Shown piece by piece: positions 36,001 to 48,000 of a DNA stretch of 64,000 nt (the first letter of the stretch is position 1; every line of letters begins with the position of its first letter). Where the stretch lies: positions 960,001 through 1,024,000 of the forward strand of contig CBDFJG010000003.1 of assembly GCA_965248445.1 (NCBI GenBank), written 5' to 3'. The DNA is from Planctomycetota bacterium (GTDB lineage: Bacteria > Planctomycetota > JAJSAM01 > JAJVHW01). The position numbers are program-made.

Positions 36001-39000
36001 CATGCCGCACCGATCTCGCGACCGCTGTTGAAGTTCGCCGTGAACGGGAATCCGGTGCGCGACCACTCGAGCGCGCGCCACGCGACGAACAACCCGACGA
36101 GCGCCCACGCCGGCCACCACTGCCACGCAACCTCGTAGCCGGAGACCGGGAACACCTTCCACTTGAGTGCTAACAACAGCACCAGCACGGGACCGGTCAC
36201 GAATCGCGGCACGCTCATCCCGAACATCGCGACGGACATGCTGGAGTAGTCCCACCACGAGTTCTGCTTGACCGCGCCGATGATCCCGGCGACCAGGCCC
36301 AGGGCGAGTGCGAGGACGATCGCGCCGGCGCCGATCACGACGGTCGGCCCGATGGTGGCCGCGATGATCTCGTTGACGGTCTTGTCCTTCTGCTTGAAGG
36401 ACGGACCGAGGTCGCCCTGCACCGCCTTCCCGATGTAGCTGCCGAACTGCTCGAGACGAGACCCTTTGAGATCGTACTTCTCGTTCAGAGCCTTCAGCAC
36501 CTCGGGCGACGTCGCCCGGTCGTTCGAGAACGGACCACCAGGAGCGGCGCGCATGATGAAGAAGCTGACCGTTACGAGCGCCAGCAGCACCAGCGGCATC
36601 GTGATCAGCCGGCGGAGGATGTACCCGGCCATGCGCCTAGTTCACGCGGCGCCGTGGCTGGTCGCGGGACAGCACGTTGATCAGTTCCACCGAGTTGATC
36701 GAGCGCACCGAGTTGATCAAGAGTACGGAGTAGATCGAGCGCACGGGGGGACTACTTCCCCGTCGCCTTCGGTCCGTCGATGTAGATGAACTGGAACGGG
36801 TGCAGGTCCCGGATGTTCTCCATCAGTCCCCGCAGCCGCGGCCGCAGCATGCCCTGATTGACGTAGAAGTAGATTGGCAGGATCGGCAGGTGCTCGATGC
36901 AGAGGATCTCCTCGGCGCGCTGGAACAGCTTCGCCCGCGCGTCGGGATCCTGCTCGACCGCCGCTTCCTTGATGAGCCGGTCGTACTCCTCGTTGCCCCA
37001 GCCGGTCGAGTTGTTGCCGCCGCCGGTGAGGAACATGTCCATGAACGTGTTCGCGTCGGTGTAGTCGCCGATCCACCCGGCGCGCGCGATCTGATACTGC
37101 AGCGTGTCCACGGCCTCGAGGTACGTCTTCCACTCCATGTTGCGGAGCTTCACGTTGACGCCGAGCACCTCCTTCCACATGGAGGAGATGACCTCGCAAT
37201 TCTGCTTGTGGCTCTCGCTCGTGTTGTACAGCAGCTCGACTTCGGGGAAGTTCTTGCCGCCGGCGTACCCGGCTTCGGCGAGGAGCTTCTTGGCCCTCTT
37301 CGGATCGTAGTCCGGTCCCTTCACGCCCTCGTAGCCGTGGATGCCCGGCGGGACGTAGCCCGTCGCGGGGATCTGCCCCGCCTTCAGCGTGTCCCTGCAG
37401 AGTGACTCCTTGTTCACCGCGAGGTTGAACGCCATGCGCACGCGCTGATCGTCGAACGGCTTGCGTGTCGTGTTGAAGCGGAAGAAGTAGCAGCCGAGAT
37501 ACGGCCACGCGTAGTAGTCGGGGTGCATCTGCACCTCGTCGATGCGCGGCTGCGGAACGGCCTTGATCCAGTCCATACTCCCGGCGAGGTACTCGTTGTA
37601 GGACGTGCTGAGGTCGTCCATCGCCCTTGCACGGATCTTCGCGAGCCGGACGATCCCCCGGTTCCAGTACTGCAGATTCGGCTCCAGGACGACCTGGTCA
37701 CGCGGCTTCCACGCCGTCAGGACGAATGGACCGTTGCCGACGAAGTTCTCCGGCCGCGTCCACTGCAAGCCGTGCTCCTCGATCGTGGCGCGGTGCACGG
37801 GCATCAGCGTCTCGAAGCTTGTCAGGTCCAGGAAGTACGGCGTCGAGGCGCCGAGCGTCACGCGGAACGTGTGCGCGTCCACGGCCTCCATGCCCACCTT
37901 CGCGATGTCGGTGACCTTCTTGTTGAAGAACGCCTCCGCGTTTTCGATTGCGAAGAGCTGATACGCGTACTGGCTCGCGGTCGCCGGATCGATGGCGCGC
38001 TGCCACGACCACAGGAAGTCCGCCGACGTGACCGGATCACCGTTGCTCCACTTCGCATCGTCGCGCAGATGGAACGTGTAGACGCGCCCGTCCGGGGAGA
38101 TCTCCCACCACTTCGCAACGCCGGGGATCGCCTGCAGCGTGGACGGATGGTGCGAAGTGAGTCCCTCATAGAGCGCCAGCGCCAGCGTGTGCTCGGGCAC
38201 GCCCGTCATCAGGTGCGGATCGAGCGTCTCCGGCTCGGTGCCGTTGTTGAACACGAACTCCTGCTCGTGCTCCTTCCAGCCGTCGCCCGCGGGGAAGAAC
38301 GCGTCCCAGTCGAAATCGAGCAGCGCCTTGCCCTGGACGGGGATGCTCATGGAGGCGATCGCGGTGCCGTCACCCGTCGTCACGCGGTCGCGGGGCGTCT
38401 TCGTCGAAGCGTTTCCGTCGCCGCCGTTCGCGCCTGCCGGATCGACGGGCGTCGCGCCTCGGCCGTCGTCGCCGCAGCCGGCAAAGAGGCCGACGCTGGA
38501 CAGAAGCACCGTGGCCGTGAGGATCCGCGTACGCATCGAGCACCTCTCTGTTGTCACTTGAACGCTATCTCTCTGACGTCTACGCAAGCGGGTCCGCACC
38601 GTCGCCCTGCACGCCGATGCGCTTTGCCCCGGCGACCTTCTCGCCCAGGATGCAGGCGACCTGGTGGCCCTTGCCGAGGTCGTAGATCGGAATCGGCTCG
38701 TCGTCGGACTTGCAGCGATCCTCGGCGAAGCGGCAGCGCGGGTGGAAACGGCAGCCCGCGGGGGGGTTGATGGGCGTCGGCACCTCGCCGGGCAGAGGAT
38801 CGGGGTTCAGTTTGGCATCGGGGTCGGGACTCGGGATCGCCGAGAGGAGCGCCCGCGTGTACGGGTGCACGGGGTTCTCGTAGAGGGTCTGGCTGTCGGC
38901 GACCTCGGCGATGCGGCCCAGGTACATCACCGCGACGCGATGACTGATGTGCTCCACCACGGCGAGGCCGTGCGCGATGAACAGGTACGAGATCCCCATC

Positions 39001-45000: not shown

Positions 45001-48000
45001 GGACAACCCCTGGATCATCGTCCCGGGGGTCTTCATCTTCGTGGCGGTCCTGGCCTTCAACTTCCTGGGCGATGGCCTCCGCGATGCGGCCGACCCCAAG
45101 GCTGTCATCTCGCGAAAGGTCCACGGCCTCGACGACGATGAAGAGGGGAGTGCCGCCTAGGCACGCCCCGCTCCGGGATTCGGGTCTGCTCGTAGCGCCC
45201 CAGGCTACGCTTCCCGCGATCTCGGCGGCGGGGCCCGCCGCGAGCCGGAGGACCCGCCACTTGTCCGTCACGCCCGACTCCGTAACACCCAACGCCGTGA
45301 CGCCCGCTGCGCTCGCGGCGTTGCGTCGCAAGATCACGGAACGCTACGCCGTGCCCTCGATTCCGCGGGCCGTGTGGCAGCTCGCTGCGACCACAGTCGC
45401 AATGGTGACGTCGTGGTCGCTCGCGAACTGGGCGCTCGACATCTCGCCCTGGCTCACTCTCGCGTTCATCGTGACGACCGCCTTCCTGCTCATCCGGCTG
45501 TTCATCTTCCAGCACGACTGCGGACACGCTTCGTTCCTTCCCTCGCAGCGCGCGTCCGACATCGTCGGTTCGTTCCTCGCCGTCATCACGCTGACGCCCT
45601 ACCTGTACTGGAAGCGGACGCACGCGATGCACCACGCAGGTTCAGGAAACCTCGAGCGCCGCGGCATTGGCGACATCCAGACGTTGACGATCGCCGAGTA
45701 CGAAGCCGCTTCCCCGGCCCGGCGCCTCGGCTACCGGATCTACCGGAACCCGATGCTGCTGCTGTTCATCGGAGCACCGTTCCACTTCCTCGTGTTCCAC
45801 CGCTGGCCGACCAATGTCTCGAAGCGCGACAAGCGCGAACGCCGCGGCGTGATTCTGGCCGACCTCGGCCTGGCGGCCGTCGTCGTCGGCATGTGCGCGC
45901 TCGTCGGCGTCGAGAGGTTCCTCCTCATCCAGCTTCCGGTCTCGTTCATCACGTGTGCCGTCGGCGTCGGGTTGTTCTACGTCCAGCACCAGTTCGAGGA
46001 TGCGTACTGGGAGCACGACGAGACCTGGGAGTTCGAGCGCGCGGGACTCGCGGGCAGCTCGTACTTCCGGATGCCGAAGGTGCTCCAGTGGTTCACCGGC
46101 AACATCGGGATCCACCACATCCACCATCTCTCGAGCAAGATCCCGAACTACCGGCTCGACCGCTGCCTGCGAGAGAACGAAGAGCTGCAGGCCGTACCGA
46201 CGATCGGCGTGTTCGCCAGCCTGCGGTGCCTGTTCCTCAAGCTGTGGGACGAGGAGTCCCGCCGCCTGGTCAGCTTCCGCACCGCCCGCCGTCTTGCGCT
46301 CGCGCGCAACGGCTGACGGCTAGTCGGTGAGCTGACGCGCCACCGCCGCCGCGACATCGTCGGGCAGCCACCGGCTGGCGTCGCCGCCGTGCCTGATCAC
46401 TTCCTTGATCAATGACGACGACAGGAACGCGTACTCCTCGGACGGCATCACGAAGACCGTGTCCAGGCCGGGCGCCAGGGCGCGATTGGTGAGCGCCATC
46501 TGGAACTCGTACTCGAAGTCGCTGACGGTGCGCAGTCCCCGGAGCAGCGCCGTCAGCCCGTGCTTCTGCGCGTAGTCGACGACCAGCCCCTGGAACGACA
46601 CGACCTCGACGTTCCCGAGGTCTCCCACGTGGCGCTGCAGCGTCGCCGTGCGCTCAGCCACCGTGAACATGGGGTGCTTGCGCGGGTTATCAGCGACGCC
46701 GACGACGAGCCGGTCGAACAACCGCGCGCCCCGTTCCACCACGTCGATGTGGCCGTAGGTCAGCGGATCGAAGGTCCCCGGATAGAGCGCCTCACGCATC
46801 AGGGAGACTCTAGCGGTACCAGCGCAGAGCGTCGTAATCGAGCTTGCGCCGGCGGGAGAACGGGTCGTCTGTTCCGAACCAGAGGTTCGGGTAGAAGGCG
46901 AACGAGATGGACGAGTTGTCCACCTGGTCGTCGCTGTCGAACTCGATCGCGATGGTGTAGTCGTGCGATCGCCGGTAGATGGTCGCTGTCGTGCGCAACC
47001 GGTTGTCACTGCGCGTGTTCTGCTGTGTCTGCAGCCCAACGGCCCACTTGTCAGTGATCCTGGCATCGCCGCGCACCGTGAAGATGCGCGAGTCGTTGAT
47101 GATCGCGCGGCGGCCGACGTACAGCTGCGCACGGTCGTTCCAGCGGTACTGCAATCCGATCGCCGACGTCTCCACGTCGTGCCGGTCGATGTCGTAGTCC
47201 AACTCGCCCGCCAGCCAGAGACTGCGCGCGAGGCGCATGCGCAGCCGGTGCTGGTGGAAGGCCGAGCCGTGCCGCTTGCGGCCGGCAAACTTGTCCTGGG
47301 CCGTCAAGTCCAGACGTTGGAGCGGAGTCGGGAGATCCTCGCGGAAGCCGAGCAGTGACTTGCGCTGGACGAACTCGTCGATGAAGTGCAGGAACCGCGC
47401 CTCGTAGTCCAGCCAATCGACCATCTCGCTGCCGTCCTTGGTCTGCAGCCGGTTGCGGAGGCGCAAGCTCGCGGTCTCCACCTCGTAGAGCTCGTCGTTC
47501 ATGTCGTTCGTCTGGAACTCGAACGGGTCTTCGCTCGCCTCGAAGCGATTGAAGTACTGCGCGTCGATGTTCACGACGTGGCGGAGCCCTGCGAGTCCAA
47601 ACACATCACTTGTGACGTCAGGGTACTCACGGCTGGCCGTCGTTCCGGCACGCAAGCCGCCGTGGAAGCCCACCCGGCCCTCGTAGCCGCCGCGGTCCGT
47701 CTGGAGGAACCCGTTACGGTCGTCCATCCCGATGGCCGAGCCGCCGAGACTCGGGGTCACCACGATCGGACCCAGCATGAAGGGCGCGGTGACGCGCGCC
47801 TGGATGTCCGCCCTGAGGGTGCCTTCGCCACGCCAACCCGCGAACGCGCGCCGCAGCCGCCGCGCCAGCACGTCGTCGTAGCGGCGCTTCACGTAGTCGA
47901 CGCTCGCTTGCGCGGAGAGGTTCACCGGTGCGAACCCCGTCTGGCCGCGCGTGAAGATGGGCTCGTTCACGAGGTGGTACTCGACGCGCGGTAGGTAGTC

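Follow-up and report, generated by a model that had tools for sequence, protein, structure and literature searches.

Predicted multiple amino acid auxotrophy in the large genomes of a planctomycete class that probably feeds on protein, and of its wider uncultured branch

Accounts of planctomycetes mostly present them as degraders of polysaccharides or as anammox bacteria. Several auxotrophies in the free-living Myxococcus and in proteolytic Bacteroidota are explained by a diet of protein or prey, and animals do not make His, Trp, Phe, Val, Ile, Thr, or Met, while they obtain Cys from Met via cystathionine beta-synthase (CBS; reverse transsulfuration). The same dietary explanation is given for the free-living Bdellovibrionaceae (Ramoneda 2023, PMC10665431), in a study in which auxotrophy falls with genome size (r = -0.40) and whose text does not mention planctomycetes. 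Within the phylum, a similar auxotrophy has been published for "Ca. Uabimicrobium amorphum" (Shiratori 2019, PMC6906331), which has a large genome with six amino acids predicted to be made, 179 peptidases, and peptide and amino acid transporters, together with 39-43% GC and 525 Ser/Thr kinases (PMC11032199); our literature search found none for the lineage studied here. Obligate predation has been observed in "Ca. Nanovoracia" (Nanovorax helgolandensis, GTDB c__J058; bioRxiv 10.64898/2026.10.26.761892), whose type genus has a GC content of ~52%, and prey engulfment has, according to a preprint, no conserved marker gene. The other deep groups that we compared are the Saltatorellus clade or SILVA OM190 (bioRxiv 10.1101/817700) and the CAZyme-poor unclassified classes UBA1135 and UBA8742, which have the lowest glycoside hydrolase diversity of the phylum, with 4-13 families (Klimek 2024, PMC11131199). 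The word "auxotroph" occurs neither in the main text of the Nanovoracia preprint nor in the Saltatorellota preprint.

The DNA analyzed here, a window of 64,000 nucleotides, comes from a genome (G000) that resembles Uabimicrobium as a planctomycete outside the canonical classes with a large genome and few amino acids predicted to be made. The prey-engulfing Uabimicrobium is without de novo synthesis of purines and pyrimidines, whereas G000 keeps purD, purH, purC, carAB, and pyrF; it also differs in having 68.7% GC and ~36 kinase motifs. The lack of purine synthesis that marks "Ca. Uabimicrobiia" was not seen in the class of G000, which here coincides with its order (17 genomes), nor were the low GC and hundreds of kinases seen in G000. 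Like the Nanovoracia as described, this is an aerobic planctomycete class on the noncanonical side of the tree, from a part of the phylum uncultured until now, with ddl, ftsW, rodA, and PBPs, but obligate predation is an observation on the former, and the class has 63-69% GC. Likeness to the Saltatorellus clade lies in ~70% GC, no FtsZ, DAP peptidoglycan, and type IV pili; the Saltatorellota encode flagella, which we did not find in G000. Bdellovibrionaceae and the other protein or prey feeders belong to different phyla. Against the trend with genome size in Ramoneda 2023, this class keeps assemblies of 3.5-6.9 Mb along with a long list of losses, so that neither it nor G000 (5.4 Mb) has the small genome of a streamlined auxotroph.

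G000 consists of 4 contigs, with repeats common to contig ends, and has every tRNA isotype and tmRNA; our own gene calls give ~4,400 genes and a coding density of 88%. Using Escherichia coli queries in tblastn (E ≤ 1e-3), we obtained no match to hisG, D, H, A, F, or I, to trpA, trpB, or trpCF, to ilvC, ilvD, or ilvH, to pheA, tyrA, proA, or proB, or to thrB, thrC, or metA. For thrA, a counterpart was found to the aspartokinase part alone. The complete His gene set of a relative (G008) gave zero matches as well. These blanks bear out the preliminary description, which had reported no genes for His, Trp, Phe/Tyr, Val/Ile, or Thr synthesis. Also without a match were cysE, cysH, and cysI. De novo Met synthesis and sulfate reduction are predicted to be missing and should be added to that list; panB and panD are missing too. 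An ilvI-like match (contig C1, 453644-455120) was rejected as an acetolactate synthase, being weak (E 1e-15, in two pieces), located in a Rieske cluster, and without ilvH. As in animals, the routes to His, Trp, Phe, Val, Ile, Thr, and Met are missing and a CBS for Cys from Met is present; unlike in animals, Arg synthesis is kept and Lys synthesis probably so, Leu might be made from Val, Pro is probably needed, and phenylalanine hydroxylase, which would give Tyr from Phe, was found in none of five genomes.

The losses extend across the class. Profile searches found hisB and hisD in one genome each among the 17, and trpA, trpB, ilvC, prephenate dehydratase (PDT), and proA in none over cut-off, even though the control purD was present in 16/17. 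All assemblies are incomplete, with 76-98% completeness by marker count. The counts given earlier for hisB, trpA, and PDT were reproduced; our profiles likewise matched in all 14 control genomes, except for proA (12/14), and the large genome size holds, with the range corrected from 4-7 Mb to that given above. Further controls were RpoB, found twice in 80/80 genomes of a panel chosen by family and by hisD status, and argH and aroC, each in 5/5 genomes. The class qualifies as a multiple amino acid auxotroph in the genomic sense, in that entire biosynthetic routes are missing although the housekeeping controls are found.

The loss had been called order-wide, which understates its scope. In two sister families (f43 and f24), hisD, trpA, ilvC, PDT, and proA were absent in 9/9 genomes tested, and ilvC was missing in 70/74 noncanonical planctomycete genomes of the panel, while six canonical planctomycetes have mostly kept the five genes. 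The loss is therefore older than the order, or it has happened repeatedly in a far broader clade, as a caveat of the preliminary description, drawn from ilvD, had foreseen. In a phylum-wide sample of 301 well-assembled species genomes, hisD was absent in 113, of which 79 fall in one multifamily RpoB clade (79 of its 93 sampled genomes); members of this clade have mostly 3-9 Mb genomes and nearly always lack ilvC too. In the rest of the clade, trpA (13/36 genomes) and PDT (12/36) are common enough that only part of the loss pattern can be clade-wide. The two trees behind this grouping were built from RpoB alone, with 25 hisD-positive families left out and with named planctomycete references, none from the deep classes and none a named predator or a member of the Saltatorellus clade; the named Planctomycetia, Phycisphaerae, and Brocadiia references lie on a branch apart from the class. 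Judging from these genomes, the trait is not order-specific and appears to belong to a much larger uncultured planctomycete branch. The dependence would be old, with branched-chain and proAB-type Pro synthesis nearly absent over a clade that spans at least 22 families and with His and Trp genes surviving only in patches. Seven clade members have the same His operon gene order, as far as it could be read, and their HisD proteins form one clade (support, 100/98), so the sole His-positive class member would carry the clade's own operon, either kept or regained from a relative. Contamination was rejected as the source of the His genes of G008, whose contig has 72% GC; the genes flanking them lie in conserved blocks and share 42-74% identity (30% for one) with G000 genes.

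Some routes are kept or uncertain. The shikimate and Arg genes reported before were found in G000, while the retention of the Lys pathway comes down to candidate LysA and DapL-like proteins, divergent in this lineage and both below cut-off in G000. The shikimate route would serve menaquinone, by the futalosine route (the family is present in 5/5 genomes), and folate; the DAP route would serve wall building and probably Lys synthesis, and the making of purines is kept. The trpE/trpG-like genes of G000 were rejected as Trp synthesis genes, with PabB over its cut-off and adjoining PabC. Homologs of leuA, leuB, and leuC do exist, as had been cautioned: LeuB is over the PRK03437 cut-off, and a LeuA-like synthase, itself conserved, and an aconitase-family fusion protein occur as well, a set that may produce Leu out of ketoisovalerate derived from Val. 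The LeuA-like protein reaches none of the curated cut-offs and in the PDB best matches homocitrate and isopropylmalate synthases alike; a role as a needed Re-citrate synthase is less likely because G000 has two Si-citrate synthases. As for Pro, the reported lack of synthesis agrees with the absence of proA and proB, but Pro might still come from ornithine, through a divergent gene of the ornithine-cyclodeaminase family (275-aa product) and genes of the arginase family; the class probably requires it. Homoserine dehydrogenase was found in 5/17 class genomes, beside metB in all four of these that were readable there, and in 45/80 panel genomes. Last, the Arg operon has no recognizable ArgA acetyltransferase, so that the first enzyme seems to be missing, and holds in its stead a conserved gene (gene X) without a Pfam, NCBIfam, or PDB sequence match. 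A fold search suggested only a SIMIBI P-loop domain (TM ~0.4); DUF1611 and DgcN were two of many equally good matches. The arrangement suggests that unusual enzymes may exist in the lineage.

Within the window, an Opp/Dpp-type ABC cluster occupies 32010-45160 and encodes two each of SBP_bac_5 binding proteins, permease pairs, and ATPase pairs, so the oligopeptide ABC operon of the preliminary description is real but was drawn too small, at 36752..45160. The minus strand carries an OppF-type ATPase (32010..33041; a gene call with ABC_tran and oligo_HPY, Pfam PF00005 and PF08352), an OppD-type ATPase (33038..34051; NCBIfam PRK09473 OppD, E 1.9e-118), OppC-type (34051..35535; PRK15406 OppC, E 4.7e-88) and OppB-type (35535..36632; PRK09471 OppB, E 1.7e-94) permeases, the first OppA-type substrate-binding protein (36752..38599, called start 38536; PRK15104 OppA, E 5.8e-116), a second OppF-type ATPase (38580..39665; ABC_tran and oligo_HPY in Pfam), and a second OppD/DppD-type ATPase (39662..40795, called start 40699; PRK11022, E 1.6e-118, and PRK09473, E 4.9e-109). 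Transcribed divergently, on the plus strand, are an Opp4A-like second substrate-binding protein (40864..42678; NCBIfam Opp4A, E 1e-45) and second OppB-type (42678..43847; Opp4B, E 1.7e-77) and OppC-type (43847..45160; Opp4C, E 5.7e-86) permeases. Every Opp/Dpp equivalog score in the cluster is under its curated cut-off, so peptide is the probable substrate by family membership. The binding proteins are among six of family 5 (OppA, SBP_bac_5) that we counted in G000, the number given before.

G000 combines this putative peptide uptake with amino acid catabolism and poor sugar catabolism. It encodes HutH and HutU over cut-off (urocanase is found in 5/5 genomes), a branched-chain-type E1/E2/E3 keto-acid dehydrogenase cluster, an acyl-coenzyme A (CoA) dehydrogenase/biotin carboxylase cluster, kbl, glutamate dehydrogenase, and, both over cut-off, P5C dehydrogenase and threonine ammonia-lyase, so that enzymes for breaking down His, Leu, Thr, and Pro are represented, while no match was obtained to pfkA, zwf, edd, eda, or crr of the usual sugar entry routes. 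Crude motif and seed searches for peptidases counted 4 M1 GAMEN motifs, 6 M28 homologs, 3 S8 motifs, and 5 M16 motifs. From these genes we infer that G000 and its class are likely aerobic heterotrophs living on protein, be it from particles, biofilm, or dead cells and perhaps also from live ones. Proteins would be cut outside the cell and the peptides imported by Opp systems as the source of carbon, nitrogen, sulfur, energy, and building blocks; CBS, which is over cut-off, and a gamma-lyase/synthase-family enzyme would make Cys from imported Met, and MetH is present. The earlier picture of a protein-feeding, multiply auxotrophic lineage with large genomes is supported by independent searches, by the purD control, and by the catabolic genes; its scope was too narrow, Leu is conditional, Pro is uncertain, and Met and sulfate reduction were not on its list.

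It is very improbable that the pathways are present and escaped detection because assemblies are incomplete, searches too insensitive, or the enzymes nonhomologous replacements. The completeness values, the Arg operon with gene X in place of ArgA, and the divergence of LysA and DapL would fit such an explanation, but purD, RpoB, argH, and aroC were found in the same genomes, five unrelated pathways are gone together in 16/17 class and 9/9 sister genomes, and it is entire multistep routes that are gone and not single steps; the His genes of the clade, where present, form an ordinary operon that is readily found. Many amino acid auxotrophies together with missing panB and panD are typical of partner-dependent cells, which raises the idea of a symbiont, a syntroph, or a cross-feeder that takes up free amino acids, dependent on a host or partner and without protein digestion of its own. 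We consider this most unlikely, since the size, GC, gene number, and coding density of G000 give no sign of genome reduction, purine, pyrimidine, and wall synthesis appear to be intact, and the transporters of peptide type, like the catabolic routes, suggest that protein is used in bulk.

More weight is due to predation, with a class of contact-dependent predators of bacteria that digest prey externally and move by means of type IV pili, possibly in or near "Ca. Nanovoracia," and auxotrophies that stem from prey and not from scavenging. G000 has six PilT-family genes (3-6 in four relatives), 4 full-length PilB/GspE ATPases, and 5 secretin matches, without a flagellum; its dcw cluster, ddl, and mreB-PBP-rodA fit the gene set described for binary-dividing predators, although pili and wall genes are common in nonpredators. 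A type VI secretion sheath was found in G013 and G001 but not in G000, G005, or G007. Published predators form the sister group of the Saltatorellus clade (~70% GC) and fall outside Planctomycetia, Phycisphaerae, and Brocadiia, which is the side of the class, and our topology is compatible with c__J058, but the RpoB trees hold no named predator and the GC of the Nanovorax type genus is lower. Uabimicrobium makes just six amino acids, but it differs in the purine synthesis kept by the class and in kinase number (a crude pattern in G000), and the string "predat" is absent from the preprint on the cultured Saltatorellota. The Pasternak 2013 predator gene signature reportedly includes mevalonate in place of the MEP isoprenoid route; ispH, of the MEP route, is present in G000. 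On balance we think predation unlikely as the way of life of the class and prefer feeding on protein. A broader scenario is tentative and rather doubtful: a multiclass branch, which by published trees would include the shape-shifting Saltatorellus and the predatory Uabimicrobiia and Nanovoracia, might descend from a large-genome ancestor that fed on cell protein and was already without branched-chain and proAB-type Pro synthesis, with His, Trp, and Phe operons as patchy exchangeable cassettes, an animal-like dependence older than bacterial phagocytosis, and this class as undescribed pilus-driven predators.

For uncultured classes of this kind, the protein-feeding reading offers a culturing lead, namely, protein, peptides, or prey and amino acid-complete media. 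The lineage would also be a clear exception to the rule that links auxotrophy with small genomes, and it makes directly testable whether predation and phagocytosis arose in the phylum only after nutritional dependence.

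The assembly under study comprises 5.40 Mb in 4 contigs (68.7% GC, 92.1% complete), with repeats common to the contig ends and 4,444 genes by our gene caller. It has tRNAs of every isotype as well as tRNA-Sec, a tmRNA, and a single rRNA operon. Searches with E. coli proteins gave no match in it to hisG, hisD, hisH, hisA, hisF, or hisI, to trpA, trpB, or trpCF, to ilvC, ilvD, or ilvH, to pheA or tyrA, to proA or proB, or to thrB, thrC, or metA. The hisB query matched by its phosphatase part alone and the thrA query matched an aspartokinase alone, while the His proteins of a relative, G008, found nothing. 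These searches bear out the preliminary description, in which the genome lacked the genes for His, Trp, Phe/Tyr, Val/Ile, and Thr synthesis. It also has no homoserine dehydrogenase, a point absent from that description, and hence no de novo Met synthesis. Neither cysE, cysH, cysI, a full gltB, panB, panD, pfkA, zwf, edd, eda, nor FtsZ was found, and serC had no match to the E. coli-type query, the only one used. A trpE-like gene was rejected as evidence of Trp synthesis, as it is PabB, adjoining PabC.

The loss was also said to be order-wide, and within the order, which is the whole class (17 genomes), it holds: hisB and hisD were each found in one genome and trpA, ilvC, prephenate dehydratase (PDT), and proA in none, against 16/17 for the presence control purD. 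No trpB exceeded the curated family cut-off. The single hit below it (L265, G010:C1:57346-58383), in a genome without trpA, is possibly an indole salvage enzyme of the TrpB2 type. Homoserine dehydrogenase occurs in five of the 17 and adjoins metB in the four readable loci, which points to a Met cassette.

The heading of the preliminary description named branched-chain synthesis as lost, which is right for Val and Ile; Leu should probably be taken out. A LeuA-like synthase without the regulatory domain (C4:1552550-1553785), an actinobacterial-type LeuB (C3:1486402-1487457), and an aconitase-family protein (C3:1479117-1481123) are scattered over the genome and would form a set for keto-acid elongation, retained although ilvBCD are missing. 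The LeuB-like protein scores over the PRK03437 cut-off and aligns in the substrate-loop region with an isopropylmalate dehydrogenase, its best hit in the PDB. The synthase is conserved at 56 to 81% in 5/5 relatives, and the aconitase-family protein has the small domain fused in front. With these three proteins, Leu can probably be made from Val-derived ketoisovalerate, the putative substrate of the synthase. The reported loss of Pro synthesis is correct for the usual route (proA in 0/17 class genomes, proC in 0/5 genomes), while a route from ornithine may exist by way of a divergent 275-amino-acid cyclodeaminase-family gene and two arginase-family hits.

Among the pathways described as kept, shikimate (DAHP synthase, aroA, aroC) and Arg are present; for Lys, lysC, asd, dapA, dapB, and dapF are present and the DapL-like and LysA-like proteins score under cut-off. 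Shikimate evidently serves folate and futalosine-type menaquinone synthesis, the latter route being found in 5/5 genomes. The Arg operon, with an N-acetylornithine carbamoyltransferase over cut-off, is conserved in four relatives (G005, G007, G009, G013); in G001 only argG and argH were seen, close to a contig end. An ArgA acetyltransferase domain was not found in a search that covered ArgA, not ArgJ. Between argG and argC lies a gene for a protein of 337 amino acids (C1:598654-599667; L013:5655-6665, + strand) without a Pfam or NCBIfam family, shared at this site by the same four relatives at 59 to 80% identity, above the conservation of its neighbors. Homologs numbered 3,927 among 8,000 candidates scored. 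Its predicted model (pLDDT 93) has a C-terminal SIMIBI P-loop domain, with DUF1611/DgcN among equal fold hits, a weak lead toward a candidate non-orthologous N-acetylglutamate synthase or an Arg-pathway regulator. The genome also keeps a complete dcw cluster and genes for both purines and pyrimidines. Cystathionine beta-synthase and MetH score over cut-off and are accompanied by a cystathionine gamma-lyase/synthase-family enzyme; the cystathionine enzymes would provide Cys from Met. The occurrence of cysD, cysN, and two cysC genes (C4:1897269-1898207, C4:1415327, C1:365766), with cysH and cysI absent, indicates that sulfate is activated but not reduced and suggests a use of PAPS in sulfation. 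A bacillithiol BshC-like gene lies beside a PIG-L deacetylase (L015:6569-8937).

The loss is not bound to the order. In 301 genomes of the phylum, each at least 90% complete, hisD was unmatched in 113; RpoB was found in 105/105 of the hisD-less genomes outside the class. In two RpoB trees the class (support 99) groups with families f43 and f24 (98, 96) inside a 22-family clade (99, 99) apart from named Planctomycetia, Phycisphaerae, and Brocadiia. Of 93 sampled genomes of this clade, hisD is missing from 79 and present in 12, with weak hits in 2; the share without hisD may be too high because 25 hisD-positive families are unplaced in the tree. The canonical families f6 (24/24), f29 (23/23), and f4 (7/7) have it throughout. 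In a panel of 80 genomes picked by family and hisD status (purD in 78/80), ilvC was found in 0/17 class genomes, 0/9 of the sister families f43 and f24, 2/36 of the rest of the clade, 2/12 of other deep lineages, and 6/6 canonical genomes. The corresponding figures, in the same order, were 0/17, 0/9, 3/36, 4/12, and 5/6 for proA, 0/17, 0/9, 13/36, 8/12, and 6/6 for trpA, 0/17, 0/9, 12/36, 7/12, and 6/6 for PDT, and 1/17, 0/9, 9/36, 7/12, and 5/6 for hisD. All five were missing from 16/17, 9/9, 16/36, 4/12, and 0/6; as kin are not independent, we claim no statistical test. A true ilvD-ilvC-ilvI cluster exists in G102. In G259 (three copies) and G110 (L273, L274), the hits to the ilvC family score lower and have no adjoining ilvD or ilvI in the two loci read, so they may be non-biosynthetic. 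Two purD matches (G180:C55:5201-6469, G263:C1:3211041-3212306) carry one in-frame TGA each.

In G008, the His-positive genome of the class, the complete hisG-C-B-H-F-A-IE-D cluster lies on a contig that looks native (L010, G008:C331, 4208-10639). The seven scattered His-positive genomes of the clade that were examined (L010, L235-L240) share this clade-specific operon, with hisD last and the genes in one common order over the part read of each locus. In a tree with E. coli as the sole reference from outside the phylum, their HisD proteins group together (100/98) and G036 branches next to them; the inner order departs from RpoB, the two f37 genomes not being sisters. Repeated loss of an ancestral operon, or its passage between relatives, would fit this pattern.

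The auxotrophy is a whole-genome finding, of which the window marks a single transporter cluster. Ten Opp/Dpp-type genes span window positions 32010-45160, in the order oppD-oppF-oppA-oppB-oppC-oppD-oppF on the minus strand and, divergent from these, oppA-oppB-oppC; the preliminary description had located the cluster without its left four genes. Every Opp/Dpp equivalog score is under the curated cut-off, so "oligopeptide" is a putative substrate, assigned at the family level. The earlier count of six family-5 binding proteins in the genome was reproduced. A fatty acid desaturase gene (window 45297-46316, +) directly follows the second permease pair.

Peptide-type uptake genes, genes for His, Thr, and Pro breakdown, catalase, and TCA genes are present, Leu and the other branched-chain amino acids are probably degraded, and none of the common sugar entry routes was found; we infer extracellular proteolysis and growth on protein. 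Possibly the class preys on other bacteria: the genome has six PilT-family ATPases over cut-off (C3:1767394, C3:1061390, C3:738856, C3:936133, C4:1826859, C4:1827893), four PilB/GspE ATPases, and five secretin hits, four relatives have 3 to 6 PilT-family genes, and a T6SS sheath occurs in 2/5 genomes (VipB, three matches in G013 on C30 and C5 and three in G001 on C76; none in three f1 genomes tested). Flagellar and methyl-accepting chemotaxis hits were absent from the genome under study. For "Ca. Uabimicrobium," synthesis of six amino acids and none of purines or pyrimidines is reported (Shiratori 2019, PMC6906331), whereas our genome keeps purine synthesis, and this, about 36 kinase motifs, and the high GC content speak against a life of that type.

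A 2026 preprint (10.64898/2026.10.26.761892) describes two classes of predators that are sister to the Saltatorellus clade; its main text does not use "auxotroph," although its supplements may bear on the point; nor does the word appear in the accessible text of the Saltatorellota preprint (10.1101/817700), a 2025 review (PMC12673574), or an mBio note (PMC11481906). Low glycoside hydrolase diversity is reported for unclassified classes by Klimek 2024 (PMC11131199). Auxotrophy is considered phylogenetically conserved or tied to streamlining in two studies (Ramoneda 2023, PMC10665431; Henderson 2026, 10.64898/2026.06.03.729626) whose main texts do not mention planctomycetes. A literature search, with most subscription journals outside its coverage, found no publication on auxotrophy in the class or clade. 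The multiple auxotrophy holds and is broader than claimed, as gene-content evidence placed on a one-gene tree, with the lifestyle inferred. Multiple auxotrophs that live freely and feed on protein or prey are a known kind of organism, described for one planctomycete; what is apparently new is how widely multiple auxotrophy extends, across a large uncultured branch whose genomes are not reduced.
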